Assembly: GCA_041658485.1 (NCBI GenBank)
Contig: JBBAAE010000001.1
Location: 11,889 to 75,888 of the forward strand
Length of the DNA: 64,000 nucleotides
Source of the DNA: Minisyncoccota bacterium
Lineage (GTDB): Bacteria; Patescibacteriota; Minisyncoccia; Phycocordibacterales; Phycocordibacteraceae
Direction: 5' to 3'
Shown here: positions 9,298 to 62,975 of the stretch, in pieces
Layout: each line of letters starts with the position of its first letter
Position numbering within the stretch: the first letter of the stretch is position 1
Translations under genes and position numbers: made by a program
Notes under the pieces: model-generated
Database searches by the model: none
Seen by the model: the letters and a program-made list of their open reading frames with translations, nothing else
Told to the model about the DNA's origin: nothing

Positions 9298-9645
9298 ATG
9301 TCTAGAGTAAAAGGAGGACCAAAGGCGATGAAGCGCCGTCGCAATATATTGAAAGCCGCAAAAGGCTATCGTTTTGGACGTTCAACAAAAACGAAGCAAG
9401 CGCTCGAGGCCTTGAAGCACGCCGGTAAGTACGCATTCCGTGACCGTAGAGCTAAGAAAAGAACGATGCGAGGACTCGCCATTGTACGTATCAATGCAGC
9501 ACTCCGTGAGCGAGGTTTCAAGAACTACAGCACCTTCATGGGCGCAGTAAAGAAAGCAAATATCGAACTCGACCGTAAAGTACTTTCCGAAATTGCAGCA
9601 GAATATCCTGAGGCATTCGACAGACTTTTGAAGATAGCTGTCTAA
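9298..9645 (+). CDS. rplT: 50S ribosomal protein L20
   Basis: 115 aa, MSRVKGGPKAMKRRRNILKAAKGYRFGRS...RDRRAKKRTMRGLAIVRINAALRERG. Confidence 0.92.
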   Translation: MSRVKGGPKAMKRRRNILKAAKGYRFGRSTKTKQALEALKHAGKYAFRDRRAKKRTMRGLAIVRINAALRERGFKNYSTFMGAVKKANIELDRKVLSEIAAEYPEAFDRLLKIAV

Positions 9646-9677
9646 TAAAAAATCCCCGCAAATGCGGGGATTTTTTA
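9646..9677. terminator. Bidirectional rho-independent terminator
   Basis: aaaaaaTCCCCGCaaatGCGGGGAtttttt directly after the rplT stop. Confidence 0.7.
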
Positions 9678-9679
9678 TT

Positions 9680-9927: not shown

Positions 9928-11304
9928 TCAAACGAGAGGAATTTCGTATGTCTCACCCTCTCTCGGTACATCAACGGGAATATTAAGGAATCCTGCGATT
10001 CGTTGTGCTAAAAATGTCGCTGACTCTGTTTCCCCCAATATTACAAAAACATGCTTAGGGTTAACATTTTCAGCAAAGGTCATAAGATCATCTCTGTCGG
10101 CGTGTGCAGAAAATCCGTCCGTTGATAGTATTGTTGCTCGCACCTTAACTTCAACCCCATCTATATTTACTGTCCGTGCACCATCCTTCAATCTTCGTCC
10201 TAAACTCCCTGGCACCTGATAGCCCACAAGCAAGAGCGCGGTCGACTTCTGTGGAAGATACTTCGCCTCATGCCTTCTAATACGCCCACCGTGGCTCATA
10301 CCAGCCCCTGCGATGATTATTTTAGGACCGGGGTGTTTGTCTATTGCCTCCGACTCGTCTGGGTGGACACTCACTTTTAAACCTGGGAATGAAAATGGAT
10401 CGTCTCCGCCGAGAAGTCGAGCACGTATATCAGCACGAAGAAATTCTGGATGCTTTCTGTACACATCAGTTACTTTTGCAGCAAGAGGTGAATCCATAAA
10501 TACTGCTACTTCGGGAATAACGCCGTTAGTAATTGCCTTATCTAAAGAAGCAAGAATTATTTGTGTGCGTTCAAGTGAAAATGCAGGTATAAGAAGCGTA
10601 CCTTGGTTGACAATAATAGCTTTAACAGCTGACAAGAGTGCCTGCTCACTTTCTTCAAGTGAGCTGTGTGTTTTATTACCGTATACGCTTTCTGTTATAA
10701 GGTATTCCACATCGGCAGGCACTTCCCTATCGGGCACAAGAGCGGCAGGCACACGACCTAAATCTCCTGTAAACAAAATTTTCTTTCCAAAAATATCAAG
10801 AAGGATAGTGGCGGACCCTAAAATGTGTCCAGCATTGTGAAATGTTGCAGTAATTCCAGACGCAAGCTCTAATACTTTCCCATATGTTGCTTCATCAATG
10901 TATTCAACTGCCCGTATAACATCTTCAGTGGCGTACGGCGGATCATCGTTACACCGCTTTGCTTCGAGTGCGATTATCTTTACGGAGTCCTCAAGCATTA
11001 TTGGAATAAGCGCTTTAGTTGGGGCCGTTGCAAACGCACGGCCTGTAAAGCCATCCTTTATGAGCTTAGGGAATAATCCAATGTGATCAGCATGTGCATG
11101 CGTAAAAAATACAGCATTAATAGTTGCGGGGTCATATGCAAATGTTTCTCTATTTGTTGATTCGCAGAATCGTTCGCCTTGCGCGAGCCCACAATCAATA
11201 AGTATGCGTGTGGTAACCTCTCCGTTCTTTGCTTCTACCAGAAAATTTGAACCCGTGACACGCCTCGCACCTCGTGCAAACAAAATAGAAATCGATTTTC
11301 CCAT
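9928..11304 (-). CDS. MBL-fold beta-CASP family ribonuclease (RNase J / CPSF-like)
   Basis: 458 aa with the HAHADHIG metallo-beta-lactamase motif followed by beta-CASP-like and C-terminal RNA-metabolising domain architecture. Confidence 0.7.
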   Translation of the reverse strand: MGKSISILFARGARRVTGSNFLVEAKNGEVTTRILIDCGLAQGERFCESTNRETFAYDPATINAVFFTHAHADHIGLFPKLIKDGFTGRAFATAPTKALIPIMLEDSVKIIALEAKRCNDDPPYATEDVIRAVEYIDEATYGKVLELASGITATFHNAGHILGSATILLDIFGKKILFTGDLGRVPAALVPDREVPADVEYLITESVYGNKTHSSLEESEQALLSAVKAIIVNQGTLLIPAFSLERTQIILASLDKAITNGVIPEVAVFMDSPLAAKVTDVYRKHPEFLRADIRARLLGGDDPFSFPGLKVSVHPDESEAIDKHPGPKIIIAGAGMSHGGRIRRHEAKYLPQKSTALLLVGYQVPGSLGRRLKDGARTVNIDGVEVKVRATILSTDGFSAHADRDDLMTFAENVNPKHVFVILGETESATFLAQRIAGFLNIPVDVPREGETYEIPLV

Positions 11305-11391
11305 ACCTTGTATAGTAGCAAACGCATCTGTATATACATGAAAAAAATAAAACTCGCCAAGGACGCAAGCGCCTCGCGAGTCTATTGAGAA

Positions 11392-11545
11392 GGGTCACTG
11401 ACGGAGTATTAACCTTAGAGCCGAAGCTCCAGGTGGGTGCTCGCAACATCTCGTGCGTCGGATTCTCCGGAGAGATTCACCAGCATGGAGTGATATAAAG
11501 CTCCCTAAAGTTTTTCAACGAGGTTAATACTCCGTCACTAACCCC
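11392..11545. ncRNA. Candidate structured RNA or MITE-like element: ~150 nt enclosed by a 22-bp helix formed between a 5' arm and a 3' arm
   Basis: GGGTCACTGACGGAGTATTAACC(TT) at 11392-11416 pairs with GGTTAATACTCCGTCACTAACCCC at 11522-11545 (18 continuous bp plus 4 outer bp). The ~100-nt interior holds several local hairpins (GAGCcgaaGCTC, TCTCcggaGAGA). It sits in the 310-nt gap between the GNAT stop and the beta-CASP start. Identity unknown; I could not match SRP, 6S, tmRNA or RNase P. Confidence 0.3.
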
Positions 11546-11563
11546 TCCTTAAGCGTAGCACGC

Positions 11564-11600
11564 TGTCAGCTTACAGCTTATAGCTTATAGGTTTCAGCTT
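11564..11600. repeat. Short tandem repeat (CAGCTTA x3, then TTCAGCT x2)
   Basis: gtCAGCTTACAGCTTATAGCTTATAGgtTTCAGCTTTCAGgg, adjacent to the structured element. Confidence 0.5.
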
Positions 11601-11615
11601 TCAGGGAGGAAAAAT

Positions 11616-12065
11616 TCATTCCCTAAGCAAGGTCATCACAATTCTTGGCTCGCCATCCCCAAAATAATTCTCTTTGAGCTCGCCAACTTTAAATCCAAAT
11701 GATTTATAGAGATTTAAAGCTTTTATATTTTCTGGATGCGTCACCAGCCATACCACTGACCCAATCTCCACATTCGAAAGAATCCCCTCAACCGCTTCGC
11801 GCGCAATACCCTGCCCTTGAAACTGGGGATCAATAGCAAAATTGGAAAGATACATCTCCTTCTTATTTGTATCCTCGCACGAGATAAATCCCGCGATCCT
11901 TCCTTTGCTTCTTATTGAGTAGGTCTGGCCTTTTTTAATATGTATAGCGAGTGCCTGTGGATCTGTAAAAGTAGAGAATGCCTTACTCTGCACCTTTTTT
12001 CCTATCACGATATATTCGTCTATGTCCGCATCAGTGGCTGTTTCTAATGTGATTCTTTTTTCCAT
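11616..12065 (-). CDS. GNAT family N-acetyltransferase
   Basis: 149 aa with the acetyl-CoA-binding motif region QFQGQGIAREAV. Confidence 0.8.
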   Translation of the reverse strand: MEKRITLETATDADIDEYIVIGKKVQSKAFSTFTDPQALAIHIKKGQTYSIRSKGRIAGFISCEDTNKKEMYLSNFAIDPQFQGQGIAREAVEGILSNVEIGSVVWLVTHPENIKALNLYKSFGFKVGELKENYFGDGEPRIVMTLLRE

Positions 12066-12105
12066 TCTATAACTTTAAAGTTGAATTGACTTTGAAAAGT
12101 ACAAA

Positions 12106-12717
12106 CTATTCCATTATTCCATCCAAATTCACGTCGTAGAGAATCTGTTCCTGCACAATACGATATTTCAAAATCTCTTCAGGCTTGAACCATACGGCAA
12201 TTTCACGTGATGCTTCTTCAGGACTTTCAGAACAATGAACGAGGTTTCTGACGGCACGGCTTTGTACAGAAGAATGGTCATACGAGTCCACAGTGTAGTC
12301 ACCGCGGATAGTACCCACATCCGATGTCTTTGGCTCTGTTGCACCCACAAGCTTCTTCACAACGGCTACTGATTCATTCCCTTCAACAACCATCATGAGT
12401 ACAGGACCTGCGGTCATGAATTTCACTATTGAGTCTATTATTTCTTTACCGTACCCGAGCGCATCCTTCTCTATTGGCAGGTTGTGCGTGGTGCGGTCAT
12501 TTAATATTCGAGTTCCTTTTTCAAGAAACCACTTCTCATCTTTATTGTAGTGACGCACAAGTTGGTCTTCCGTGGCAAGGCCAAATTTGAATGCAACAAA
12601 TTTCAACCCTGTTCTCTCTATCCGCTTCATTATCTCGCCGATAAGCGAACGCTGTACTGCGTCAGGCTTCAATATAATGAGCGTGCGCTCATTCTCAAAT
12701 TGTGCATTAGTGTTCAT
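12106..12717 (-). CDS. ndk: Nucleoside diphosphate kinase with N-terminal extension and internal insertion
   Basis: ERTLIILKPDAV, GPVLMMVVEG, TIRGDY and NLVHCSES motifs of NDK. 203 aa against a typical ~140. Confidence 0.85.
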   Translation of the reverse strand: MNTNAQFENERTLIILKPDAVQRSLIGEIMKRIERTGLKFVAFKFGLATEDQLVRHYNKDEKWFLEKGTRILNDRTTHNLPIEKDALGYGKEIIDSIVKFMTAGPVLMMVVEGNESVAVVKKLVGATEPKTSDVGTIRGDYTVDSYDHSSVQSRAVRNLVHCSESPEEASREIAVWFKPEEILKYRIVQEQILYDVNLDGIME

Positions 12718-12740
12718 TCCCGCGACTATAGCATTAAGAG

Positions 12741-12851
12741 GCTTTAGTGGCTAGGGTTTAGCGTTTAGGGGAGAACGAATTGAAAAATCCTGATCCCTAC
12801 GAATCCGACGAAGCATCGTCTAAACCCTGACCACTAAACGCTAGCCCCTAG
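12741..12851. repeat. Pair of inverted G-triplet repeat units (GGGTTTAGCGTTTAGGG family) flanking a 47-nt spacer
   Basis: Left unit ctttagtggctagggtttagcgtttagggg (12741-12770); right unit ctaaaccctgaccactaaacgctagcccctagc (12819-12851). Lies between the TraD-like stop and the ndk start. Confidence 0.6.
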
Positions 12852-15733
12852 CTCTTCTGGTTCTCTCGCATCTGATTATACTTCTGGTGAATATCAGCCT
12901 CCACAGCTTCGCGGGCTCGACCGTAGCGTTGATACGAAATCTGTTTCAATGCATCAATGTTCAAGAAGTCGCCAGGGGTAAACGGGATAGTCTCAATAGT
13001 AAAACCAGGGGTAGGCTTTCCTCCAGCAAGGAGCTTTAAATATGAATGGAAGTTGTCAATTTTTAGGAAGTCGGAAACCTCAAAGTTTGGAAATTGTTTC
13101 GCAATATACTCAGCATCATCGGGACCTACACGAAACACTGCCATCGTACCAACGTTACCAAAGACCGCTTCTTTAATTTTTGGAAGGAGCTGAGAAACAT
13201 ACTGGTGCGCCATAGTCATAGAGAGACGGAATTTTCGTGCTTCTGAGAGAATTGTTGAAATAGTATCGGTCGTGATGTTCTGGAACTCGTCAATGTAGAG
13301 ATAGAAGTTTGGAGGATTCAAATGCAAATACTCAGTACGTGCAAGTGCAGTCATCATTATCTTTCCAACAATCACAAGTCCAATCAAGTTTGCATTTACG
13401 TCCCCCAGTCGGCCTTTGGACAAGTTCACAAGAAGAATCTTCTTGTTGTCCATAATATCCTTGAAATTAAAGGCCGATCGTTGCTGACCTATGATGGGGC
13501 GCATAATTTCATTTGCGATGAAGATATCGAATTTTGAGGTGATGTACGGAACCACGTTACGCAAATCTCCTTCTCCCCGCACATTTTCTGCAATGTCTTC
13601 CCAGAAGTGCGTTACCACGGGATTTTTACAGCGCGACAATTTCAATGCGCGGAACTCATCGTCAGCGAGTACTCGCGAAATATCCATGAGTGTCGAGCCA
13701 GTATCAGGATCTTCCAAAACAAGCATCGTGGCATTACGAAAATACTGCTCGAAAATAGGGCCGAACGCTTCTGGTACATCACCATATAATTTCTTGAAAA
13801 TCTTAAACATCTCGTCCACCACGAATGTTTTTTGTTCAGGGAAGCGTGGATCATACTCAAGCATATTGAGCCCCATTGGCCTTGCGGTATATGCAGGATC
13901 AAAATAAATGAGGTCGTCAATGCGATCTTTAGGAATACGGGAAAGAATCTCCAATACATCCACACCGTGTGGGTCAATAAAACACACCCCTTCCCCATTC
14001 TCAATGTCCTGAATAATCATATTCTTCAGGAAGTTCGTCTTACCAGTACCCGTTTGTCCAATGGTATACATGTGGCGCAGGCGATCATCTGGAGTGAAAT
14101 GAATTGGCGTTGCAATATTTGAGTAACGATTAATGCCGATGACAATGCCTTTCTCAGGAAGCCCTGGTGGTGCAGGAGCAAGCTTAGCGCTTGCAGTTTT
14201 GGCTTCACGAGATGCTGTACCTCCTGCAATAGTGAGATGAAAAATAGTTGAGAGCTCTGCCAAATTCATCGGCATGAGTGGAATCTTATGCATCAAAGGT
14301 GTTGGCGCAGCCTTGCGTGTCCATTCAAGCCACAGCTGATAGAAAAATCCTTCGTGTGCTTGACGGTCAAACATACGGAAAATGAACAAGCGGAGAAACT
14401 CCCGCAACTCCTTTCTACCTTTTATATGCTTAAAACGAAGGCGATTCGCTTTTGCATCTTCATACTGCCCAAAGGTATTTTCAAGTTCCGTCAAAATTGC
14501 CATTGCCCTCTCTTTGGTGCGAGCAGAGGCAACAATGCGTAAATTCACTCCCACAATGACACTCTTGAGCTTTTTTGACACTGCGTCAGCCGCAAAAGAA
14601 TCAATATTCTTACTATCATCCTTCTTTTTTTCTTCAGAGCTTTCCAAAAAACTAGTGAAGCCTTTGTTCAATCCCTGAAAAAATCGACGCATTGGTGAGT
14701 AATGCTCCATGTACATATTTTTTCGAAATATGTCATTCGCAGAACCCTTACCTTTATTAAGTTCGTCTAAAACATAGCGGATACGCTTAGAGTGATAGTC
14801 TCCTGCTGGTGCAACGGTAATTTGAAGCGCAGCCCCTTCACCTTCTTTAGTGATTTTTGAAAGTGCTGCGAGCGTCACATTCATAGGGTCGTGACTAAAC
14901 TCTTCTGATGTCTTTAAAGGAATTGGTGGCGGGCGCTGATAGTAAGCAGACGCTGCAACAGTCACACCAAATTGGTTAAAAAGATTGTAGTCATCTTTTT
15001 TTTCAACAATACGTGCGCGAGGAAACATGGCAAAAATCTGCTTTTCAAACGTTTCCCGTTTTGCTCGAGGAACTGACAAATAAAAGACCGCTTCCTCTTT
15101 AGTGTGCGAAACAGCAATTTCCATTGTGAAATGCTGAAGATGAATCTTTTTGCGCTTGTGCCAATCCTTCAGGAAAATTGTATCGGGGAGAGCAACAAAA
15201 GGAATCATGCTCAAATAAAACTGCTCCATCTGCATGCAAACATCCTTAAGAGACCCCCCTGGTTTCCCTGGCGCAGCTTCAGGTACGGCTATATCCAAGA
15301 GAACAAAATCAAGAGCTACAGCGAGTGGGTCATTAGCACTCAGCCCTGGGATTGGATGACCAGCTGTCCGGTATTGCACAAGCAGGCGATGGAAATCATC
15401 TTCAAGGTGGGGATTATCAATGCGATCGAGCTCCCTCATGACAGCCTTGAATCCTTGGGTATGCAAAATACCCAACAACTCCTCCATGTCTTTGTCGTTC
15501 GAGTCAGGTGTAAGTTCAAGAATGATGCCTTGCTTCTGCTCTTGCTCTACCCCCTCTGGTGCCTCCGAAAGTGTAGGGAGAACAGACGCTTCGACAGGTA
15601 AGGCCGGATCCCCTCGATGTCCCCTTCCCCCTCCACCCGAACGCGCGGTCTCACGCAACTTCGTCAGTTGATGCTCAGGCGAAAGTTTCGCTGCTTTTGT
15701 ATCAATTCCTTTATTAGGATTAAATCCTGGCAT
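12848..15733 (-). CDS. TraD/VirD4/TrwB-like (FtsK-HerA superfamily) P-loop ATPase with a large N-terminal domain of unknown function
   Basis: 961 aa. Walker A YTIGQTGTGKTNFLKNM, Walker B LYIDEFQNI, then ARKFRLSMTMAHQYVSQL typical of type IV secretion coupling / DNA-translocation ATPases. The N-terminal ~500 aa have no recognisable similarity and no N-terminal transmembrane helices. Confidence 0.6.
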   Translation of the reverse strand: MPGFNPNKGIDTKAAKLSPEHQLTKLRETARSGGGGRGHRGDPALPVEASVLPTLSEAPEGVEQEQKQGIILELTPDSNDKDMEELLGILHTQGFKAVMRELDRIDNPHLEDDFHRLLVQYRTAGHPIPGLSANDPLAVALDFVLLDIAVPEAAPGKPGGSLKDVCMQMEQFYLSMIPFVALPDTIFLKDWHKRKKIHLQHFTMEIAVSHTKEEAVFYLSVPRAKRETFEKQIFAMFPRARIVEKKDDYNLFNQFGVTVAASAYYQRPPPIPLKTSEEFSHDPMNVTLAALSKITKEGEGAALQITVAPAGDYHSKRIRYVLDELNKGKGSANDIFRKNMYMEHYSPMRRFFQGLNKGFTSFLESSEEKKKDDSKNIDSFAADAVSKKLKSVIVGVNLRIVASARTKERAMAILTELENTFGQYEDAKANRLRFKHIKGRKELREFLRLFIFRMFDRQAHEGFFYQLWLEWTRKAAPTPLMHKIPLMPMNLAELSTIFHLTIAGGTASREAKTASAKLAPAPPGLPEKGIVIGINRYSNIATPIHFTPDDRLRHMYTIGQTGTGKTNFLKNMIIQDIENGEGVCFIDPHGVDVLEILSRIPKDRIDDLIYFDPAYTARPMGLNMLEYDPRFPEQKTFVVDEMFKIFKKLYGDVPEAFGPIFEQYFRNATMLVLEDPDTGSTLMDISRVLADDEFRALKLSRCKNPVVTHFWEDIAENVRGEGDLRNVVPYITSKFDIFIANEIMRPIIGQQRSAFNFKDIMDNKKILLVNLSKGRLGDVNANLIGLVIVGKIMMTALARTEYLHLNPPNFYLYIDEFQNITTDTISTILSEARKFRLSMTMAHQYVSQLLPKIKEAVFGNVGTMAVFRVGPDDAEYIAKQFPNFEVSDFLKIDNFHSYLKLLAGGKPTPGFTIETIPFTPGDFLNIDALKQISYQRYGRAREAVEADIHQKYNQMRENQKS

Positions 15734-18887: not shown

Positions 18888-20159
18888 TTAATATTCTCGT
18901 AAAGAAATTTGTGCTCCAATCTTACGCACCAAATCCAAGACGACTGATACAACAATGAGGAGCGCTGTACCGCCGATGGCAAGCGTACTAAGGCCCGTGA
19001 GAGATTGCATGATGAGCGGAAGAACGGCAACAACACCAAGAAACAATGCGCCAACCATAGTAATCCGCGTAATGACGGTGCCAAGATACTCTGCTGTTTG
19101 TACTCCTGGGCGTACCCCTGGCACAAACGCTCCGTTCTTCTGCAGATTGGTTGCGAGCATGTTTGGGTCAAAAGTAACTGCAGTGTAGAAGTATGTAAAG
19201 AGAAACACGAGGAGGAAATAAAACACTGCATAAATCACCGCACCACCACTCCACGAGAGAAGTGCGCTCGCAATTCCTGAAAGCCACACCACAGAAGATT
19301 TTGCTGCAAAATTCAAAAGGAGCTGAGGGAACAACAGAATGGAGAGGGCGAAAATAATAGGAATAACCCCTGCCTGATTTAAACGAAGCGGTAAGTAAGT
19401 AGAAACACCACCATACATTTTATTACCGCGAACTCTCTTTGCATATGTCACGGGGACTGGTCGTTCTGCTTCGGTCATGACCACAACGCCGTAGATAATA
19501 ACCAATGCTGCGATAACAAAGCCCATATAGAGAGGAATTTGCGCGGGGTTAAAGGAGAACAAAAGCTGTGCAAAATTCTGCGGAACGCTCGCAACGATAC
19601 CTGCAAAGATTATGAGCGACACACCATTACCAACACCAAACTCGGTCATAAGCTCTCCAATCCACATCAACAAGACCGAGCCTGCAGCTATGATAAGAAC
19701 ATTCAACATGAACGCCATGAGTGGAAGTTGGTCAACGATTCCCTGACTCTGGAATAAAGAGAGGTACGCGTAGCCTTGAATAAATGCGAGCGGAATAGAA
19801 AGTAATCGTGAGTACTGACTAAACTTCTTGCGTCCCTGATCTCCCTCCTCCTGATACATCATCTTCAACTTTGGGAACATGATGGTAAGAACTTGCATGA
19901 TGATGGACGCAGTGATGTATGGCGCAACACCGAGCATGACTATTGAAAGATTGGAAAGCCCTCCTCCTGAGAAAATATTGAGGAGACCAAGGAATTGATT
20001 ACTTGAAAAGAATTGCGAGAGACGCACCGGATCAATTCCTGGAATTGGTATCGTTGCGAGAAGTCTGAATACGGCAAGTGCCACAATGACAAAACCAATA
20101 CGCTTGAGAAGCATACCGTCGCTCAGAATGAGTTTGAGTTTTGCAAAGAATCCAGACAT
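18888..20159 (-). CDS. secY: Preprotein translocase subunit SecY
   Basis: 423 aa, ten transmembrane segments, SecY signature, follows rplO. Confidence 0.93.
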   Translation of the reverse strand: MSGFFAKLKLILSDGMLLKRIGFVIVALAVFRLLATIPIPGIDPVRLSQFFSSNQFLGLLNIFSGGGLSNLSIVMLGVAPYITASIIMQVLTIMFPKLKMMYQEEGDQGRKKFSQYSRLLSIPLAFIQGYAYLSLFQSQGIVDQLPLMAFMLNVLIIAAGSVLLMWIGELMTEFGVGNGVSLIIFAGIVASVPQNFAQLLFSFNPAQIPLYMGFVIAALVIIYGVVVMTEAERPVPVTYAKRVRGNKMYGGVSTYLPLRLNQAGVIPIIFALSILLFPQLLLNFAAKSSVVWLSGIASALLSWSGGAVIYAVFYFLLVFLFTYFYTAVTFDPNMLATNLQKNGAFVPGVRPGVQTAEYLGTVITRITMVGALFLGVVAVLPLIMQSLTGLSTLAIGGTALLIVVSVVLDLVRKIGAQISLREY

Positions 20160-26713: not shown

Positions 26714-27055
26714 TTATTTTTTCTTCTTTGGCTTTGCTTTCCCTAAAGTCACTGTTATATGGCTCATTCTATGGCGAATTGGGGACGAACGACCAAATGC
26801 ACGAGGCATCGAGCGCATAGCAACCAAACCTTTATTGACCGTAATATTTTGAACAACGAGAGTTCTTCCGTCTTCGCCTTGCTTCTCAGCGTTTGCGACA
26901 GCAGAAGAAATGAGTTTTGCCATGGGACCTGCGGCGCGCTTATCCAAGAACTTCAGTGCAAGAAGCGCTTCCTCAATGCCCTTACCCTTCACAAGCTCAG
27001 TAACGAGTCTGGTTTTTCGTGGAGTCTGCTTGTAATTGGAAAGTGTCGCCTTCAT
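26714..27055 (-). CDS. rplV: 50S ribosomal protein L22
   Basis: QTPRKTRLVTELVKGKGIEEALLALKF. Confidence 0.9.
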   Translation of the reverse strand: MKATLSNYKQTPRKTRLVTELVKGKGIEEALLALKFLDKRAAGPMAKLISSAVANAEKQGEDGRTLVVQNITVNKGLVAMRSMPRAFGRSSPIRHRMSHITVTLGKAKPKKKK

Positions 27056-27080
27056 ATGCTGATTCTAGGGGTATCAAAAA

Positions 27081-27440
27081 TTACTTCTTTGCGGGAGCCT
27101 TAGCTTTACCGTCGGCTGGAGACTTAGCTGCTTGGGCTGCTGCAATTTCAGATTCTTTCTTCTTCTGCTCAAGTTCTTTCTGCATCTTACCTCCGTGACG
27201 AGTAAATTTCGTTGTTGATGAAAATTCACCAAGACGATGCCCTACCATTTCTTCTGTAACAAATACCTCAGGGAAATCCTTTCCGTTATGGACAAGAAAA
27301 ACAAAACCAACCATTTCAGGACTGATTTCAGATGCACGAGCCCATGTTTTAATAGGCGCCGTTGTTGCAGGCTTCTTGCCTTCAATCTTCTTTAGAAGCT
27401 TGTGGGCGACATACGGACCTTTTTTAAGTGAACGAGACAT
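27081..27440 (-). CDS. rpsS: 30S ribosomal protein S19 with Lys/Ala-rich C-terminal tail
   Basis: [20 protein letters not shown]...[26 protein letters not shown]. Confidence 0.9.
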
Positions 27441-27538
27441 TGTTGTAGTTTTGACCCAAATGAAGTGCGCACTAAGAAAAATGCGCCCTTACGAGCTTTG
27501 GGCATACTATCCCAATCACCCACTCACTGTCAACATCA

Positions 27539-27566
27539 TTTGTGCAACCTCCGGAGGTTGCACAAA
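27539..27566. repeat. Perfect 28-nt palindrome TTTGTGCAACCTCCGGAGGTTGCACAAA
   Basis: Read in sequence, 21 nt beyond the stop of the Y1 transposase gene. It recurs at 28301-28334. Confidence 0.85.
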
Positions 27567-27587
27567 TGACATATCGTATAAAAAAAA

Positions 27588-28286
27588 TTACAAAATAATA
27601 ATGCCTTCAAGCTCCTCAGCTAAAAGTTTTTTGTTGGTTGTTTTAACAAAATCAGCGTAATTACTTTTTGCTGTTATGGCAAACTGCCCTGTAATGATTT
27701 CGGGCACTATGAGTCCTCCCCATCGGTTTGCATCAGTAAAATCTTGGAGCGACGACCAAGGATATTCAAATTCCTTTCCTGACCATTCTCGTGTATCACG
27801 AGGGTTTCTATGAATGTAGGCGGATGTGTAGAGAAGTTGAGAGTCTGTCTTTACATGCACCGCTTTATACGGACCCTGAAATACATGCCCAGTGGCGTCA
27901 TATTTAACATTATAATATTTTGTATATCCATCAGACACACGTTGCATATAGCGTGCGATTCCACCTTCAATAGTTTCTTTGACCAGTAAGTGAAAATGGT
28001 TGGACATCAGACAAAAACAAACCACTTCTACAAAACGACTCTCGATAATGGACTCGATATCTTCGTTAGGAACAGAAAAACCAATATCCGGAACAAAACT
28101 TTCCGTAATGCGATGTATATTTTTAAACTCGTGCGGGGATTGGAGAAACAGCACATTAAAAAGGAATCGCCGCCAATCGTTTTTTTCTTTAAAAACCGTT
28201 TGTCGGTGAGCTCCGCGATTAAAAATATGGTAGTACTCCCCTGGAGCAATTCCTTCTCGCGATTTTAGTAATACTTTAGGCATCAA
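27588..28286 (-). CDS. IS200/IS605-family (REP-associated tyrosine transposase, RAYT-like) Y1 transposase
   Basis: 232 aa. EYYHIFNRGAHRQTVF opening block, CLMSNHFHLLVKE (HuH motif), GHVFQGPYKAVHV with the catalytic Tyr region. This is the typical Y1_Tnp / RAYT layout. Confidence 0.75.
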   Translation of the reverse strand: MMPKVLLKSREGIAPGEYYHIFNRGAHRQTVFKEKNDWRRFLFNVLFLQSPHEFKNIHRITESFVPDIGFSVPNEDIESIIESRFVEVVCFCLMSNHFHLLVKETIEGGIARYMQRVSDGYTKYYNVKYDATGHVFQGPYKAVHVKTDSQLLYTSAYIHRNPRDTREWSGKEFEYPWSSLQDFTDANRWGGLIVPEIITGQFAITAKSNYADFVKTTNKKLLAEELEGIIIL

Positions 28287-28300
28287 TGTAGACTAACACG

Positions 28301-28334
28301 CCCCTTGTGCAACCTCCGGAGGTTGCACAAGGGG
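28301..28334. repeat. Second copy of the palindrome, extended: CCCCTTGTGCAACCTCCGGAGGTTGCACAAGGGG
   Basis: Read in sequence, 15 nt upstream of the transposase start codon. It has the same 24-nt core as the copy at 27539-27566. Confidence 0.85.
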
Positions 28335-28360
28335 CTCGAAACCAAAAATATTTGCCGAGA

Positions 28361-31300
28361 TTAAAACTCGTCGAAGCGCGGAGTAACACCTATGGTCACT
28401 GACTTTGAACTCGGAACCCCACCGGTCAAACAATTCATTGTGTATGTACTTTGTTGATTTATGATCACAGATTGTGCGCCTGAAAAAGCTGTTGAAGAAA
28501 GCCCAGGGCCAGAAATCGAACAAGAGTCAGGAGTGCCCACCACTCCCCATGACACCGTTGCAGGGTCGCCTTGGCGAACAGTAACGGCTGGGCTAATGCT
28601 GAGAGCAATATCAGCAGGGTTTACAGTAACTGTTGCACTTGAAGATGCACTTCTCGTACCGTTTGTACAAGTGATGCCGTAGGTTGTAGTAACTGGAGGG
28701 GAAACAGTAACCGAACCAACGGTTGCACTCCCTGTTGGGAAGTTAGTTCCTGTACAAGAAGTGGCGTAAGAAGATGTCCAGTCAATGCGTGGAGAAGTTA
28801 CACCTTTAATTATTACGTTTGGTGTAACAGTAATGAGCACCGTGGGAGTGTTCTGTATAGTTCCCGCTGCACATGTCGCAGTAACTGACCCTGCACCTGA
28901 GGTCACAATAACTGAAGCCGATTTCGTACCGGCAGTAGCGTATGTTTTCGAGACAGTTACACCTGTGCCGAGAAGTCCGTCAGTGCCACTCCAGACATAT
29001 GTATATGAACCTACACCACCAGAAGGTGTGACGGTCCACGTTAATGAATCTCCCACATACCCAGTACTTGGTGATGGAGAACATGATGCTGTCACTGCAC
29101 CCGGGTTTACAGTTAATGATGTCCATACACTACAGTTATCAAGCTCATTGGATTCGTTCACTTCATTGAGTGGTGTATCAGCACAAAAACGCATCTGGTA
29201 CGAACCCGGTGAAGGAAATGTGTAGCTTCCTGTTTGAGTACCACTGCCCCCAGCTACAATCGATATTCGACTTAAAGCAATTTTAATTGACGTATTGGCT
29301 TCCGCAAAATTAATAAAGAAACTAAAGATGCGACTCCAAATAGAGTCTGACTTGGTGAGATAATTATTGAGACAAGCACTGTCCGAAGTGAGACACACAT
29401 ACATCCTTGAACCAAAAACTGGAGTCGCTGCCCCACCACGATTAGTAACGCCAGCGGTAAATGTGGTATTTACTCCCGCAGTTACACTGGCAGGAGAGAG
29501 AGACCCTGTAGTTAAATCCGCCAAAGAAACACCAACTACAACAGAGTTTGAACAACTCGCCGTAACTGATGCATTCGATGCAGTTGCCATACCTGCCAAA
29601 TAATTATGTCTCGTTGTACTACCGCTCGTTGAGGTTTTCGAGGCAAGAGAAGCATTCGAATATGCTTCGTAGCGATAGTAGGTATTAACAGGTTGCCCAG
29701 CTGAATTCAAAGTCTCTCGCACATCAACACTACAGCAACCGCCTGCTGGGGTTATACCTGCGCACACTCCTGCCATAGAGCTAGTGTTGAGAGTAAATCC
29801 AACACCATCCTCGGTAGTACCATAACTACCTACTTTCGTACCTCCAGAACAATGCTTTTCCCCTTGAAGCGTAACAGAAGTTGCGCCGGAAGGGCTAGTG
29901 ATAGTGATTGAGGCTGTTTTTGTACCGACAGTTGTATATGTTTTTGAAATAGATGCAACGGCACCCGAGAGACTATCAGTACCACTCCATGAATACGTGT
30001 ATGAACCGGCTCCACCCCATGCAGAGGCAGTCCAAGTTACAGGACTACCGGTGTATACACTTGTTGGCGATACTGAACATGACCCAGAAAGAGCGCCGGA
30101 GGAGGTTGAATTTACTTGAACATTTGCGGTAGCGAAAGCGGTCTGAGGAGTCACGGCAGGAGAGGCGCCGACACATGAATAGATATCAGTATTGATGCTG
30201 CATGCACTGATGGTGTTCACCTTACACGTTGGGATACTACAAGTCTTTCCTGTTGGATTCGAAGGGCAAGTTGGTACGCTTGAATATGCCTTGTTTGGAT
30301 CTGTGAGCGGGCAAGCAAAATCACTTATATCAGACTCTGAATATTGCCATGTACCTGACGATACTGCGCTAGCTCCTGTACAGGTGATGGAGTAGTTTGT
30401 ACTAGCACTTAACGCTCCGGTAGAAATAGAGCCTGATGTATTCCCGCCAGTTTCAAATCCACTACCAACACAAGAAACTGCATTAGTTGAGGACCATGTG
30501 AGAGTAGCGGAAGATCCAGAATTCAAACTTGTTGGAGTTGCAGAGAGTGAAACCGTTGGCGAAGGGATTGAACTTACAGTGACCGTTTGGGATGCCGCCG
30601 CAGAACCGCCAGCGCCAGTACATGAGACAAGATAACTTGTTGTTTGCGATGGGATAACTGTTACAGAGCCTGCAGTTGCCGACGCTGTCGAAAAATTGGT
30701 TCCTGTACAGGAAGTTGCGTTCGTTGAACTCCAAGTAATAACTGACGAGGCACCTGCGACAAGAGAGGTTGGATTTGCAGAGAGCGTTGCCGTTGGCGCT
30801 GCAGGAAGATTCACGGTCACCGTCCGAGATGCAGACGCAGAACCACCAGCGCCAGTACATGAAACGAGGTAACTGGTTGTTTGTGACGGGACCACCGTTA
30901 CGGAACCTGCAGTTGCTGATGCTGTCGAAAAGTTAGTGCCCGTGCAGGATGTTGCGTTAGTTGAACTCCAAGTTATTACCGATGATGCACCTAATATAAA
31001 GGAGGTTGGATTTGCAGAGAGTGAGGCAGTTGGGGCAACAACAGGAGCACTGACAGTCACCGTTGCGGAAGAAGAAATTGTCTGGGCACCATCGGTACAG
31101 GTAATTAAGTAGGCTACTGAAGAAGATGGTGAGACAATAAGCGAGCCTGAAGTAGCGCCACTAGTTGAAAAATTAGTGCCCGTACATGAGGTTACATAGT
31201 CCGAACTCCATGTTAAAAGAGACGAACCTCCACTAGTTATGGAAGCAGGTGTCGCAATAATTCCAACATACGGCGCTGTTGGCTCTTCGATACAACCCTC

Positions 31301-31597
31301 ATCCATGTCGCCAACAGTTGCGGTCTGATAGGCACTTTGCACTGTATAACTATCTCCACCATACACTGCATAAAAGGCCGCGGCACCTCCACTGCCCGGG
31401 GGGAATGGATTAGTTACTACAGTGTAGGAGTATTCCCATATCGAACCACTACACCCTCCGACACCACCTCCTCCACCATCCATGTTTGGTGCAGCGTATA
31501 CCGATTGAGGAATTATACTGAGTACCGCAACTACAAAGACAGCAACCACAAAAAAGCTTTTAAAAGTGCGGGCAACAAACTGGCGGAAGGCTATCAT
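28361..31597 (-). CDS. Giant secreted Thr/Ser-rich repeat-domain protein (surface or S-layer-like candidate)
   Basis: 1078 aa. Signal peptide MIAFRQFVARTFKSFFVVAVFVVAVLSIIPQSVYA, followed by poly-Gly. At least six copies of a ~75-90-aa module (xTPTSLxxGxSSxxTWSSTNATSCTGTNFSTxxATxGSxTVxPSQTTSYxVxCTGAGGS). A Cys-rich central module (GTWQYSESDISDFACP...CKVNT...YSC). PKD-like GSYTYSWSGTD modules. Many N-x-S/T sequons. C-terminal tail ...PRFDEF. Confidence 0.8.
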   Translation of the reverse strand: MIAFRQFVARTFKSFFVVAVFVVAVLSIIPQSVYAAPNMDGGGGGVGGCSGSIWEYSYTVVTNPFPPGSGGAAAFYAVYGGDSYTVQSAYQTATVGDMDEGCIEEPTAPYVGIIATPASITSGGSSLLTWSSDYVTSCTGTNFSTSGATSGSLIVSPSSSVAYLITCTDGAQTISSSATVTVSAPVVAPTASLSANPTSFILGASSVITWSSTNATSCTGTNFSTASATAGSVTVVPSQTTSYLVSCTGAGGSASASRTVTVNLPAAPTATLSANPTSLVAGASSVITWSSTNATSCTGTNFSTASATAGSVTVIPSQTTSYLVSCTGAGGSAAASQTVTVSSIPSPTVSLSATPTSLNSGSSATLTWSSTNAVSCVGSGFETGGNTSGSISTGALSASTNYSITCTGASAVSSGTWQYSESDISDFACPLTDPNKAYSSVPTCPSNPTGKTCSIPTCKVNTISACSINTDIYSCVGASPAVTPQTAFATANVQVNSTSSGALSGSCSVSPTSVYTGSPVTWTASAWGGAGSYTYSWSGTDSLSGAVASISKTYTTVGTKTASITITSPSGATSVTLQGEKHCSGGTKVGSYGTTEDGVGFTLNTSSMAGVCAGITPAGGCCSVDVRETLNSAGQPVNTYYRYEAYSNASLASKTSTSGSTTRHNYLAGMATASNASVTASCSNSVVVGVSLADLTTGSLSPASVTAGVNTTFTAGVTNRGGAATPVFGSRMYVCLTSDSACLNNYLTKSDSIWSRIFSFFINFAEANTSIKIALSRISIVAGGSGTQTGSYTFPSPGSYQMRFCADTPLNEVNESNELDNCSVWTSLTVNPGAVTASCSPSPSTGYVGDSLTWTVTPSGGVGSYTYVWSGTDGLLGTGVTVSKTYATAGTKSASVIVTSGAGSVTATCAAGTIQNTPTVLITVTPNVIIKGVTSPRIDWTSSYATSCTGTNFPTGSATVGSVTVSPPVTTTYGITCTNGTRSASSSATVTVNPADIALSISPAVTVRQGDPATVSWGVVGTPDSCSISGPGLSSTAFSGAQSVIINQQSTYTMNCLTGGVPSSKSVTIGVTPRFDEF
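30590..31130. repeat. Near-identical in-frame tandem DNA repeats (~270 bp, about 90% identity) inside the giant gene
   Basis: Two successive ~90-aa modules (...SLSANPTSFILGASSVITWSSTNATSCTGTNFSTASATAGSVTVVPSQTTSYLVSCTGAGGSASASRTVTV / ...TLSANPTSLVAGASSVITWSSTNATSCTGTNFSTASATAGSVTVIPSQTTSYLVSCTGAGGSAAASQTVTV) encoded by nearly identical DNA. Confidence 0.6.
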
Positions 31598-31654
31598 TCC
31601 ATCTATTGTACAGGGAATTCATACTTGCTGTTAAGAGAAATTTGTGAGGGGTGG

Positions 31655-31688
31655 AGTAATAAAAACTCTCCAGGTAATGGGGAGTTTT
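31655..31688. terminator. Bidirectional rho-independent terminator between the two giant genes
   Basis: aaaaACTCTCCaggtaatGGGGAGTttttttatttc. Confidence 0.5.
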
Positions 31689-31847
31689 TTATTTCAGCTC
31701 CCTGATTTGCGTTGCTTGCCCCATCATTAGAATTTGGCGTTACTCCTTATAGTGAAGTATTAGACGTTTTAGACACCGACCACACGGTCGTGAATCTGTG
31801 ATTTGCAGTATCCCGTACATCGAAACAATCTATTACGCACCTGTGTA

Positions 31848-34325
31848 TCAAAACTCTTCGTATGCTGGTAGCAGTTTGACTGTTATTGATTTTGAAGTGG
31901 TCCCTCCACCTGTCGTACATGAGAACGTATAGGTACTTTCTTGACCTATAATGACACTTTGCGAACCTGAAAAAGAACCTGATGAGAGCCCTGGGCCACT
32001 CATGAGACACGAATCAGGACTTCCTGATACTGACCAGTTAATAATTACCGAATCATTACGACGAACTGAAGTGTTTGGGGATGCAGTAAGCACTAGATCC
32101 GCTACATATACTGTAACGACCGCGCTCGAGTAAGCACTTTTTGATGCGTTCGTGCACGTAAGGTTATAGGTAGTGGTGTTAGTTGGTGTTACCGATAGAG
32201 CGCCAGACGTTTGGCCTCCTGTTGCAAAATTAGTGCTTGTGCACGATGTTGCGTTTGTCGAAGACCACGTAAGTTGCGACGCATTTTGCCCGCGAATAAT
32301 TGAGCTCGGGGTCGCACTTAAAAGTGCCGTAGGAGAAGCTGAGATTGAGGTTGAATTGCTACATGCTTGAGTAACAGACTGTGTGCCTGAAGCAACAATC
32401 ACAGAGCCGGCTTTGGTTCCCACTGTTGTGTATTGCTTCACAACCGATTGCGTTGTTCCTGATAAACCATCTGTACCACTCCACGAATACGTATAGGAAC
32501 CGGTGCCCCCCGCAGGAGACGCTGTCCACGTTATGTTGTCATTTGTATACCCCGAGGTGGGAGCAACAGCGCAGGAGGTATTAAGTGATGGAATTGCGAC
32601 GGTCACAGCAGTCCACGCACCACAATTATTTGTTTCATTGGACTCGTTGATAACGCCGGAACCCGTAGATGAGTTTTTGTCAGCACATGCACGCACGTAC
32701 CACGTACCTGCCGAAGGGAACGCGTACGAAAAAGTAGTTGCCTCAGAACTATTCGTCGAAATGTTTGGTGACATACCAGTGCCAATATCTTCTGTATTCG
32801 CACCACTTGAAGATGTAGCTCGCTGAAAAAGATTGATGAACTCTCCTCCTGTCGCAGGGTTACCTGCATTCGTGATTGTTGCGGAAAATGTTTTTGCGAC
32901 GTTAGTAATTGCGGAGGTTGGTGAAATGGCGCTCGCACTAAGATCGGACAACACTACACTCACTGCAACAGAATTTGAACAACTCACTCCCGCCGAGTTA
33001 CCGCCCGAAGTAATTGTCACTGCACCACTCTTCGTACCAGTGGTTGAGTATGTTTTGGATACCGATGCACCTGTGCCAGAAAGACTATCGGTACCACTCC
33101 ACGAATACGTATACGAACCGGTGCCACCCGATGCAGATGCAATCCAAGTAACCATCTCTTCCGTATACACACTTGTGGGAGACACTGCACACGATGCCGT
33201 AAGGGGCGTACTTGAAACAGTAACGTACGCACTGCCCGATACACTTGGCGGAGGCGATGTTACTTGGCACGAATACAAGTCCGTAGTGATACCACATCCG
33301 GGACCGATTGTGTTTACTTTACACGTTGAAGGAGGTGAGGTGCATGATTTACCTTGAGGACTCGCTGGGCAATCTGGTACAGAACTATAAACATTGTTGC
33401 TGGATGATACAGGGCACGATAGATCCGAGTAATCACTTTGATAGTATTGCCATGTTCCAGTGCCACTCCCCGAAGAACCCGTGCATGTAAGCGTGTAATT
33501 TGTGCTAGCGTTTGGCGTAATGGTGATCGAGCCCGATGTGGCGCCAGCGGTATCAAATTGAGTGCTCGAGCAATACGAAGTATTGCTCGAAGTCCACGAA
33601 AGCGTTGTACTCCCTCCCGCGGTAACCGAGGAGGGAGACGCGGTCAACAATATACTTGGCGACGAACTTGGGGGCGTTACCGTAAGAGTCGCCGAGCCTT
33701 GCGCTGTACCTCCAGCACCAGTACAACTTACTGAATACGTTGTAGTTTGCGACGGTGAAACAGAAACTGTACCAGAGAGTGCTCCGCCCGTACTGAATCC
33801 CGTTCCCGTACATGATGTTGCATTTGTGGAACTCCACGTGAGTGCAGATGAGTACCCTGCCGAAATGGACGTGGGCGCTAGAGATATTGACGTGGTTGGT
33901 GCGGGAGAAGCGTTGATATAGGTAAGTGCATATGTCTTAGTTGCACTTGCCGTGCCGGCGCCACTATACATTTTATAGAGTATGTTCCAACTGCCGCTGT
34001 TCGACGTTAATTCTCCTTGAATACAGTACGAGCCTGGAGTGTTATAGCCACTTGGGATGAGAGTGCCATCTATAAACCCCCACGCGAGAATGCTCCACGA
34101 CGGTGCAGACGGTGGCGACAAGTCCCCCTCACCACCGAGATTCGCCACAAACGCCCCCGTACATTTTGTATTTGCACTGGTAACGGCGCCAGAAGAAGTT
34201 GGTGGATTGGGGTAGGCGTACGCCTCCGCAAAAGAGACAGAAACGCTTCCCACAAAAACGGCCGCGATTAAAAAACTTCCGAATGTTTTCAAAACAAAAG
34301 ATGTAATCGGTGTGAGCGAGTTCAT
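31848..34325 (-). CDS. Giant secreted Thr/Ser-rich repeat-domain protein, paralog of 28361-31597
   Basis: 825 aa. Signal peptide ...VSVSFAEA. Same module types as its neighbour (SLAPTSISAGYSSALTWSSTNATSCTGTGFSTGG...; central GTWQYYQSDYSDLSCP...CKVNTIG...YSC; GSYTYSWSGTDSLSGT). C-terminal tail ...LLPAYEEF. Confidence 0.8.
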   Translation of the reverse strand: MNSLTPITSFVLKTFGSFLIAAVFVGSVSVSFAEAYAYPNPPTSSGAVTSANTKCTGAFVANLGGEGDLSPPSAPSWSILAWGFIDGTLIPSGYNTPGSYCIQGELTSNSGSWNILYKMYSGAGTASATKTYALTYINASPAPTTSISLAPTSISAGYSSALTWSSTNATSCTGTGFSTGGALSGTVSVSPSQTTTYSVSCTGAGGTAQGSATLTVTPPSSSPSILLTASPSSVTAGGSTTLSWTSSNTSYCSSTQFDTAGATSGSITITPNASTNYTLTCTGSSGSGTGTWQYYQSDYSDLSCPVSSSNNVYSSVPDCPASPQGKSCTSPPSTCKVNTIGPGCGITTDLYSCQVTSPPPSVSGSAYVTVSSTPLTASCAVSPTSVYTEEMVTWIASASGGTGSYTYSWSGTDSLSGTGASVSKTYSTTGTKSGAVTITSGGNSAGVSCSNSVAVSVVLSDLSASAISPTSAITNVAKTFSATITNAGNPATGGEFINLFQRATSSSGANTEDIGTGMSPNISTNSSEATTFSYAFPSAGTWYVRACADKNSSTGSGVINESNETNNCGAWTAVTVAIPSLNTSCAVAPTSGYTNDNITWTASPAGGTGSYTYSWSGTDGLSGTTQSVVKQYTTVGTKAGSVIVASGTQSVTQACSNSTSISASPTALLSATPSSIIRGQNASQLTWSSTNATSCTSTNFATGGQTSGALSVTPTNTTTYNLTCTNASKSAYSSAVVTVYVADLVLTASPNTSVRRNDSVIINWSVSGSPDSCLMSGPGLSSGSFSGSQSVIIGQESTYTFSCTTGGGTTSKSITVKLLPAYEEF

Positions 34326-34336
34326 ATCATTACATG

Positions 34337-34999
34337 TTATTTGATGTCTGATTTGGAATATGTAACAGAACCCAAATGTCGTACGCCAGTTCGAATATCA
34401 TACAGCTCAAAGGAATTTGGACGACCGGTGTGCATGACGATGGTCGCGGGTGACGCGAAACCGACGGCAATGAGGTAGGTTGGCAAATTCGGGATTTTGA
34501 ATGAACCACGATACGAGACGCTCGCGCCACCGTCATACACCTTGAACACATCAAATTGGTTGGTGACCTGATTGAACAATACCGCAGCACTTCCGTCAGG
34601 AGCAACGGCACCAACATCAGGAGTAATGCCTTCTTGCGCAATGAGCACAAGTTCACTTTTTGCTTTCGGATTACGCCAGACTAGCCCTTTCTCGGTAACT
34701 ACAAGAATCATACCGCTCGGAAGTGTAACGTTATTTGAGACTGAGAGAGTTTGTTGTGGTGCCGTGGCAGTATGCACTTCATTCGCAGAATTCAAGGCAT
34801 ACCACCGATAAGTATCAGTTTCATACATTGAAAATACTTGATCTGCCATTCGCTCGTTCGCCTCTTTTGGTATCCATTCAGAAAAAAATGTACGTAGAAT
34901 AGGGACCGCATACAACAGACCGCTCAATGCACCCAAAATGAGCGCAATAGAAAGTGTGATACGCATTGGTCGAGAGAGTCTCTGTACTATCTGACTCAT
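34337..34999 (-). CDS. Hypothetical membrane-anchored protein
   Basis: 220 aa, one N-terminal transmembrane helix (ITLSIALILGALSGLLYAV), no family recognised. First gene of the accessory island downstream of rplB. Confidence 0.45.
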   Translation of the reverse strand: MSQIVQRLSRPMRITLSIALILGALSGLLYAVPILRTFFSEWIPKEANERMADQVFSMYETDTYRWYALNSANEVHTATAPQQTLSVSNNVTLPSGMILVVTEKGLVWRNPKAKSELVLIAQEGITPDVGAVAPDGSAAVLFNQVTNQFDVFKVYDGGASVSYRGSFKIPNLPTYLIAVGFASPATIVMHTGRPNSFELYDIRTGVRHLGSVTYSKSDIK

Positions 35000-35039
35000 A
35001 CTCTCAGCAGTCTACAACGAAAAGATAGCACCCCTTAAA

Positions 35040-37638: not shown

Positions 37639-37778
37639 TTTGTGAAAAGAAAAACGCGCACTAGTATTTCGCAGTGCGCGATATACCATTGGTCCGAAAG
37701 TAGCCTATTGGGCTTCCGTACGTAGCGTTTCGACTACTATACACAAAGCATCTAAAAGATGCAAGAAAACTCAAAACA

Positions 37779-37812
37779 ACAAAAAACACCCCATGCAGGG
37801 GTGTTTTTTGTT
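37779..37812. terminator. Terminator/attenuator-like hairpin between rpsJ and rplC
   Basis: aaaaaaCACCCCatgcaGGGGTGttttttgttgttttt, with T-runs on both strands. Confidence 0.5.
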
Positions 37813-37828
37813 GTTTTTAAAAATTCAA

Positions 37829-49324: not shown

Positions 49325-49364
49325 ACAGAATTTTTAAGGGAGGAATATAAAGACATACTGGGAA

Positions 49365-62926: not shown

Positions 62927-62930
62927 CCTC

Positions 62931-62975
62931 AAAATCCCCACTTTTCTCTAGAGAAAAGTGGGGATTTTGCTTTTG
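62931..62975 (+). terminator. Rho-independent terminator after ppa
   Basis: aaatCCCCACTTTTCTCtagaGAAAAGTGGGGattttgcttttg. Confidence 0.65.

Follow-up and report, generated by a model that had tools for sequence, protein, structure and literature searches.

Within a 64-kb stretch of contig JBBAAE010000001.1 from a Minisyncoccota bacterium (GCA_041658485.1), which we call the window and in which all coordinates are positions, one gene encodes a Y1 HUH enzyme and is bracketed by two copies of one perfect palindrome. We think it probable that gene and palindrome form a module like the REPtrons and TIRtrons, pairing a class-2 Y1 HUH single-stranded DNA (ssDNA) endonuclease of the RAYT type (REP-associated tyrosine transposase, REP standing for repetitive extragenic palindromic) with its cognate hairpin; class labels follow the TnpA_Y1 classification of PMC6006769. 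The gene lies on the minus strand (27588-28283, 231 amino acids), with a promoter-side, or upstream, palindrome of 36 nt at 28300-28335 and a downstream palindrome of 34 nt, proximal to rpsS, at 27536-27569. The case is carried by the fold and motifs of the protein, by hairpins that vary together with the protein, by solo and intragenic copies of the hairpin for which empty sites exist, and by a conserved locus at which alleles have been swapped. We place the module with the REPtrons and TIRtrons, and not with IS200/IS605, because the gene appears to be single-copy, its tyrosine motif is Y---NP, its fold is TnpA_REP-like, the hairpin has solo and intragenic copies, and descent is mostly vertical.

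The enzyme and its matched hairpins

The protein passes the Pfam model Y1_Tnp (PF01797) with 35.3 bits against a gathering score of 23, and has the HUH motif and a single catalytic tyrosine; YYHIFNRG, NHFHLL, GHVFQGPY and SAYIHRNP are its recognizable blocks. Translation from ATG gives 231 amino acids, and from a TTG one codon earlier 232. In an alignment of 32 family members, H96 and H98 of NHFHLL and Y156 of SAYIHRNP are invariant (32/32 sequences), as is a C-terminal YPWSS...NRWGGL...SNYADF block, and every other residue of SAYIHRNP is either invariant or reaches at least 90%: within YIHRNP the residues Y156, I157, H158 and P161 are invariant, and R159 and N160 occur in at least 90% of the sequences. 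The motif around the tyrosine is the Y---NP of class 2 (RAYT / TnpA_REP). Because sequence-profile matches in the PDB were only weak (ISDra2 TnpA, E 0.004; 4er8, E 0.04), the protein was placed by fold search, and it has the fold of IS200/TnpA_REP-type transposases with about 11% identity to 4er8 over the structural alignment. Judged by inspection against Table 1 of PMC6006769, its signatures match class 2 and come closest to subclass 2.1 (Bertels group 1, TIRYT), for which NH[YF]H, FQ, Y[IV]H.NP, SS and a length of about 238 amino acids are characteristic; the counterparts here are NHFH, FQ, YIHRNP (Y[IV]HLNP in the subclass), SS and 231 amino acids against a median of 238.

The family is large. 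A database search returned more than 1100 Y1 homologues of about 220-235 amino acids, nearly always one contig each, the named ones being Patescibacteria, and an exhaustive profile search gave 790 clusters at 50% identity (E <= 1e-30). For nearly all clusters there is one Y1 gene per contig, as in the window, and no multi-copy near-identical Y1 genes were seen in the homologue search or in the genomes bearing the hairpin core. Locus L076 has 2-3 divergent paralogues: this 20-kb metagenome locus (9935-14030, 19359-19946) carries two full Y1 cassettes in opposite orientation with their own hairpins (TGTTCAACAC.. and TGGTCAACAC..), together with a third relative of 29% identity. The protein was unmatched in PADLOC and PHROGs, and a tblastn search of plasmids gave at most 33% identity (one match of 45% over a 32% fragment) to sequences annotated as 'transposase' or not annotated. 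No tnpB was present among the gene neighbours inspected on the window contig and in relatives.

The palindromes share a 26-nt core, TTGTGCAACCTCCGGAGGTTGCACAA, which occurs exactly twice in the window (27540-27565 and 28305-28330); no further copy was found there with up to three mismatches allowed, and none is expected in shuffles. A sequence-only reading of this DNA had proposed a Y1 transposase open reading frame (ORF) flanked by two copies of one palindrome, and the Pfam score together with the chance expectation of zero copies confirms it. The distances that it gave, 21 nt past the stop and 15 nt before the start, are right to within 1-2 nt: we count 22 nt from the 26-nt core to the Y1 stop and 17 nt from the 34-nt CCCC..GGGG form to the ATG. 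Its shared core also stands, but its view that only the upstream copy is extended does not, since both copies outgrow the core, to 34 and 36 nt, by TCAT/ATGA arms downstream and GCCCC/GGGGC arms upstream that differ in sequence and are each self-complementary. Described from the 24-nt core TGTGCAACCTCCGGAGGTTGCACA, which lies at 28306-28329 and 27541-27564, the variable outer stems are GCCCCT/AGGGGC and TCATT/AATGA. As ssDNA both fold well below shuffled sequences, the rpsS-proximal copy at -16.4 kcal/mol (z -6.4) and the promoter-side copy at -21.1 kcal/mol (z -7.0). No T-tract follows either copy and a terminator scan was negative, so we rejected the palindrome as a terminator of the Y1 gene or of the PKD-repeat gene that precedes it.

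Hairpins of the same build accompany the family. We compared 80 metagenomic loci encoding Y1 relatives of 50-68% identity, and in about 70 of the 80 such a hairpin lies near the gene (within about 130 nt), in 66 different sequences of one shape: TG, a 10-bp stem, a GC-rich apex of 3-4 nt (CCGG, CCCGGG, CGA/TCG) and CA, with the foot reading TG[TG]...[CA]CA on both sides. Across 593 kb of these metagenomic sequences, a hairpin of this class is hardly ever found except beside a Y1 gene, and in the window the two copies beside the Y1 gene are the only ones (0-0.2 expected). The upstream and downstream arms are the same in 19 of 25 non-redundant loci, whereas between loci the figure is 27/600. We rely on position relative to the gene, chance expectation and this contrast in arm identity within and between loci, because covariation statistics would be circular for a set selected for pairing. 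The match also holds between alleles: strains with 100% identical S3 and S19 proteins and near-identical flanks carry either the window-type protein with its hairpin or a protein of about 69% identity with a different hairpin. The hairpin thus follows the enzyme allele and not the neighbouring genes, which argues against a purely host regulatory palindrome.

Within the 3-nt-loop hairpins (L051, L059, L077, L090, L097 and others), CGA loops and their complement TCG occur at one locus with no pattern relative to the gene; because both occur within the same locus, the hairpin or its loop flips. In a more distant branch (L050-L105) the Y1 ORF itself contains, in frame, a third hairpin of the branch's own type, which co-varies with the flanking ones; it lies about 155 nt after codon 12 and, in the example of L097 8094-8120, is read as EFVQSRALDS. 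Some complete hairpins also have next to them half-hairpins terminating in the loop, and 3' arms repeated in tandem (GTTGGACA x3), at L086 10653-10700, L097 7870-7915 and L098 ~110-155; these may be footprints of apex cleavage or of replication slippage.

Copies of the hairpin away from the gene

We scanned a genome collection holding one genome per species (596 Gb) with the central 18-mer of the palindrome and obtained 22 stretches. Fifteen of them lie in five Patescibacteria genomes, and all of these have the 24-nt core. The remaining seven, in unrelated phyla, are without TGTG/CACA ends and fit the roughly nine chance 18-mer matches calculated for a collection of this size, and we set them aside. 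The five genomes carry seven copies (a contig of 749 kb), four, three, two and one. In the 749-kb genome two copies flank the orthologous Y1 gene, three are intergenic and two lie in frame within genes. Only four of the core-bearing loci have a Y1 gene and the other 11 copies are solo; the palindrome is therefore not confined to the window site, in line with the sequence-only reading, for which confinement to this locus would have been adverse.

Of the 11 solo copies nine are intergenic; most of these follow a stop codon by 20-75 nt or sit between convergent genes. No conserved promoter boxes were found beside solo copies. The other two lie in genes for a cofE-like ligase and for dus (tRNA-dihydrouridine synthase), where they are read in one and the same frame (VQPPEVAQ). 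In close homologues of the two proteins the hairpin segment is missing and the site is empty: for cofE the net difference is 24 nt, and in dus 48 nt are cleanly inserted between AAA and CCG. In the alignments of filled and empty sites (A3 and A8) the gaps were misplaced by MAFFT, and these comparisons rest on reading the sequences by eye. Other genomes have decayed versions of the hairpin at the cofE and dus sites, and in one the cofE copy shows a compensatory change of a stem pair from C-G to A-T. From the filled, empty and decayed sites it follows that the hairpin-bearing segment is gained or lost as a unit, and REPs within genes have likewise been described as units gained and lost (PMC3733652).

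At one orthologous site a solo window-type hairpin stands directly beside a hairpin of the type found at locus L028 (L024 2170-2225; L016 7740-7795), forming a small two-family cluster reminiscent of BIMEs (bacterial interspersed mosaic elements). SCTS01 has an intact L028-type neighbour; in two other genomes this hairpin has decayed. One genome with such a pair, a solo window-type hairpin adjoining an L028-type hairpin, has a window-type gene.

The copies also reveal how the palindrome varies. In all 19 independent copies the 24-nt core is extended outward by 1-10 bp of differing sequence, with a mean of about 4.2 bp per side against 0.33 by chance, and at orthologous solo sites the outer stems are unlike in sequence yet still paired. 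Two near-identical strains have upstream palindromes of 26 and 40 nt, and the flanks on the two sides have changed in concert. At locus L001 the arm on the Y1 side is the complement of the flank on the rpsS side and reaches into the -35 box. Relatives keep the core of the palindrome at 28300-28335 with other paired outer stems (TCCC, CCC, CTT and others), so the CCCC/GGGG caps, which had been taken to echo a G-triplet repeat family in the window, are one version of a hypervariable outer stem. Other C4/G4 palindromes checked for such a link (9644-9679, 37773-37817) look like ordinary terminators built of an A-tract, a GC stem and a T-tract. Quasi-palindrome template-switch correction is a known error mode of replication, and we infer that perfect palindromes growing outward are best explained by it.

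Locus, inheritance and alternative explanations

The Y1 gene adjoins rpsS in all close relatives and in about 35 of the 80 loci, and at least 25 loci, spanning L2 identities of 62-98%, have it between rplB and rpsS; another clade has the module between pth and rpsA. Loci with the gene co-directional with rpsS have two hairpins (the window, L028, L037, L072 and L087). At the loci whose flanks were read, a few nucleotides, 7 in the clade of the window and about 7 in both gene orientations, separate the hairpin core from an rpsS -35 box (RATGRnGTTGACA), with the same box abutting the hairpin at inverted loci, and the hairpin centre lies about 60-160 nt 5' of the rpsS start. In the window the rpsS promoter-like site (TTGACA, 18 nt, TAGTAT; 27504-27533, minus strand) has 10 of 12 matches in a consensus scan and is conserved in relatives, and the edge of the rpsS-proximal palindrome is 2 nt from its -35 box. 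The Y1 start is preceded by a hairpin at 8-52 nt, in most family members with a -10-like box right after the hairpin and the ATG 6-9 nt further. The window copy of this box is a putative extended -10 element, TGtTAGTCT (28290-28298, minus strand), 6 nt 5' of the ATG, and TGnTAGnnT is kept at that position in six relatives. Read as a promoter, this arrangement suggests that the Y1 mRNA is leaderless.

Inheritance was assessed with the S3 protein as strain marker; an exact-protein look-up of the S19 protein of the window gave no record. The more similar two S3 proteins are, the more similar are the Y1 proteins (Spearman 0.69 over 253 pairs), which points to mostly vertical descent.

Under the REPtron/TIRtron-like reading, the enzyme, which is presumably dimeric as other Y1 transposases are, would recognize a TG-(10-12 bp stem)-CA hairpin extruded from ssDNA, for example on the lagging-strand template, and would cut and rejoin the DNA through Tyr156. 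Such activity would keep the copies adjacent to the gene matched to the enzyme and would occasionally seed or remove short hairpin-bearing segments at intergenic 3' ends and at in-frame positions in genes. With the upstream hairpin lying against or over the Y1 promoter, binding would probably autoregulate expression. The gene would be essentially single-copy and mostly vertically inherited at a fixed site, here rplB/rpsS, with the cassette replaced now and then by a divergent allele, and the palindromes would grow by template-switch correction.

Several observations weigh against this reading, or against its canonical form. The NCBIfam equivalog model for RAYTs of the E. coli type (NF047646) gives 27.8 bits against a cut-off of 80. 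At 1-7 copies per genome, the repeat is far below the tens to hundreds typical of RAYT systems; only the two flanking copies occur in the window, the solo copies could be relics, and with so low a copy number any ongoing dissemination is weak. No conserved asymmetric guide or cleavage motif, GT[AG]G included, was found next to the hairpins, so no cut site can be proposed, and the tetranucleotide that the sequence-only reading had proposed to look for 5' of the hairpin is not at the foot. What that reading called a RAYT-like arrangement thus holds as regards the solo copies elsewhere and the lack of near-identical gene copies, but not as regards the low-copy repeat, the foot and the NF047646 score; with its low copy number, its foot free of GTAG and its failure to match the NCBIfam RAYT model, the system is not a canonical RAYT/REP. 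The clade in which the gene is divergently oriented, pointing away from rpsS, has a single hairpin, on the Y1 5' side, and flanking on both sides is consequently not universal. The hairpin has a fixed position beside two promoters, which is compatible with a double-stranded operator as well. Finally, the comparisons of alleles that follow show that the whole hairpin-bounded unit can move between genomes in a cassette swap, as insertion sequences do.

According to the likeliest alternative, which we nevertheless consider unlikely, the module is a mobile cassette of the IS200/IS605 kind, autonomous and site-specific, with the hairpins as its left and right ends; the enzyme would excise the whole unit and insert it at one preferred target by the rpsS promoter. 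The cassette is indeed replaced as a unit. Between the window and L028 nucleotide identity is 0.84-0.99 in the flanks and drops to 0.57-0.69 exactly across 28376-27477; against L001 it is 0.79-0.91 in the cassette, 0.31-0.67 on the side of the PKD-repeat gene and 0.75-0.92 in the ribosomal genes, the cassette being about as conserved as the ribosomal genes or slightly more so. In relatives with the other allele, homology resumes exactly at the rpsS-side edge of the 27536-27569 palindrome. Between the same neighbours the cassette stands in one orientation in L027 and in the other in the window, and assemblies break inside the hairpin: contigs of two sequencing runs end within or just beside the rpsS-proximal copy (L117 position 1; L118 position 1), and it is the palindrome, or the two-allele polymorphism, that breaks assemblies of the ribosomal-protein block. 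However, there is one copy per locus or contig with no near-identical copies, the single hairpin of the divergent clade leaves no second end, Y1 identity co-varies with S3 identity, and homologous recombination through the highly conserved ribosomal flanks can explain the allele swaps. The protein also has Y---NP and 231 amino acids, not the Y---Q and roughly 150 amino acids of IS200 transposases (PMC6006769). The hairpins themselves are of little help here. The sequence-only reading started from the premise that the ends of IS200/IS605 elements carry different hairpins, which is imprecise: the left-end and right-end hairpins of IS608 are similar, and for that reason twin hairpins alone do not separate RAYT from IS200/IS605.

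We find it quite improbable that the palindrome is instead a host regulatory element, either a double-stranded operator or an RNA or DNA structure, that serves the rpsS and Y1 promoters or insulates a split S10 operon, with the Y1 protein as a domesticated regulator. Such a role would suit the few fixed nucleotides between core and rpsS -35 box in either Y1 orientation, the constant place of the hairpin 5' of the Y1 start with the -10-like box directly after it, and the retention of the locus across lineages as distant as the L2 identities given above. On the other hand, different Y1 alleles have different hairpin sequences next to an identical rpsS promoter and identical genes, the catalytic HUH and tyrosine residues are invariant, solo and intragenic copies do not lie beside promoters, and other clades keep the module at pth-rpsA.

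More speculative, and in our view very improbable, is that hairpin and Y1 gene make up a fixed functional part of the Patescibacteria S10 operon, of which two versions can be drawn. In one, a switch sensing replication or ssDNA, the hairpin-bound Y1 protein may tune transcription of rpsS-rplV-rpsC. In the other, an integron-like cassette site, an HUH enzyme in place of a tyrosine recombinase may swap hairpin-bounded cassettes between strains through ssDNA intermediates; this would account for the co-circulation of two alleles, for the occurrence of both orientations and for breakpoints that fall exactly at the palindrome. That the twin palindromes are a chance or assembly artefact unrelated to the gene is refuted: palindromes can cause assembly breaks, but no copies are expected by chance and the same arrangement recurs in independent assemblies (NCBI, JGI, ENA, Logan).

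Neighbouring features, known systems and significance

On the minus strand the order is rplB, a PKD/CARDB-repeat gene, the 36-nt palindrome, the Y1 ORF, the 34-nt palindrome, the promoter-like site, rpsS, rplV, rpsC, rplP and rpmC. The first gene 3' of the cassette is rpsS (ribosomal protein S19; 27081-27440, minus strand), identified from the ORF list and from Pfam labels on an identical contig, which also identify the upstream operon neighbour rplB (ribosomal protein L2; 35075-35938, minus strand). Between rplB and the cassette lies the gene for a 1078-amino-acid PKD/CARDB-repeat protein (28361-31597, minus strand), found only in the clade of the window, while in other lineages the Y1 gene directly adjoins both rplB and rpsS; PKD-like repeat segments continue beyond it at 31600-35000, inside the S10 operon. 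The region is hypervariable, with 85-90% amino acid identity where ribosomal proteins are 100% identical, and 30-60% nucleotide identity to L001. The rpsS leader contains a hairpin, GCGCATTTTTCTTAGTGCGC (27467-27486, minus strand), after the promoter-like site and before the start codon. All the relatives aligned conserve it, and it may represent a ribosomal-protein leader or an attenuator. A scan of 27000-28800 with Rfam found no family, only two sub-threshold chance matches. Elsewhere in the window, long perfect palindromes of 46 nt (49296-49341) and 40 nt (62930-62969) lie at gene ends and are unrelated in sequence to the Y1 hairpin, and canonical bidirectional terminator-like hairpins lie at 300-339, 9644-9679 and 37773-37817.

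Among the closest known systems is the E. coli REPtron, in which TnpA_REP (RAYT, subclass 2.2) acts with REP/BIME sequences (PDB 4er8; PMC3333891, PMC3479197). In contrast to it, each hairpin here is a perfect palindrome whose foot is TG...CA, without GTAG on the 5' side, the hairpins number 2-7 per genome where E. coli has hundreds, the 231-amino-acid protein has another C-terminal region, only the low structural identity given above and an NCBIfam RAYT score far under the cut-off, and the host phylum is Patescibacteria. Subclass 2.1 has been reported to lack REP-like hairpins and to have a distal domain like a helix-turn-helix (HTH), and TIRYT repeats share GGGGWSAS (PMC3733652, PMC6006769, PMC5581495). 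The module resembles the TIRtrons of these reports in that flanking repeats are sometimes self-complementary and only moderately abundant, and is unlike subclass 2.1/TIRYT in its compact hairpin of 23-24 nt, in a protein where Pfam finds only PF01797 and no HTH, and in flanks without GGGGWSAS. Subclass 2.4 REPtrons have 'double-foot' REPs and REPs in frame inside tnpA_REP (PMC6006769), and both the symmetric, double-foot hairpins and the in-frame copy in the Y1 ORF of the distant branch recall them; the foot, however, is TGK/MCA and not GTRG/CYAC, the internal copy stands before the HUH motif and not between HUH and the tyrosine, and the taxonomic range is another. With IS200/IS605 elements (IS608, ISDra2) it shares a Y1 HUH enzyme, a tnpA gene that in some clades has a subterminal hairpin on either side, and a hairpin-bounded unit exchangeable between genomes. 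It is unlike them in its Y---NP motif in place of Y---Q, a protein about 80 amino acids longer, the lack of multiple identical copies and of tnpB, the many members with one hairpin and a fixed chromosomal locus.

This is a large Patescibacteria family with enzyme-matched hairpins, not described in the literature searched, and probably a variant of the REPtron/TIRtron theme. In that literature we also found no paper linking the rplB-rpsS junction or Patescibacteria to such enzymes, and no account of a stable rplB-rpsS position against the rpsS promoter. Because contigs break at the hairpin, the assembly and interpretation of ribosomal-protein syntenic blocks are affected. Work on RAYT-type enzymes and the repeats that go with them has been almost confined to Proteobacteria and Cyanobacteria, and what the enzymes and repeats do for the host is unsettled. 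The Patescibacteria version is a stripped-down system in tiny genomes, with one gene, one short hairpin type and few copies, and its clear co-variation of enzyme and hairpin, together with sites that are filled in some genomes and empty in others, makes it a tractable system in which to learn what these enzymes cut and why hosts keep them.
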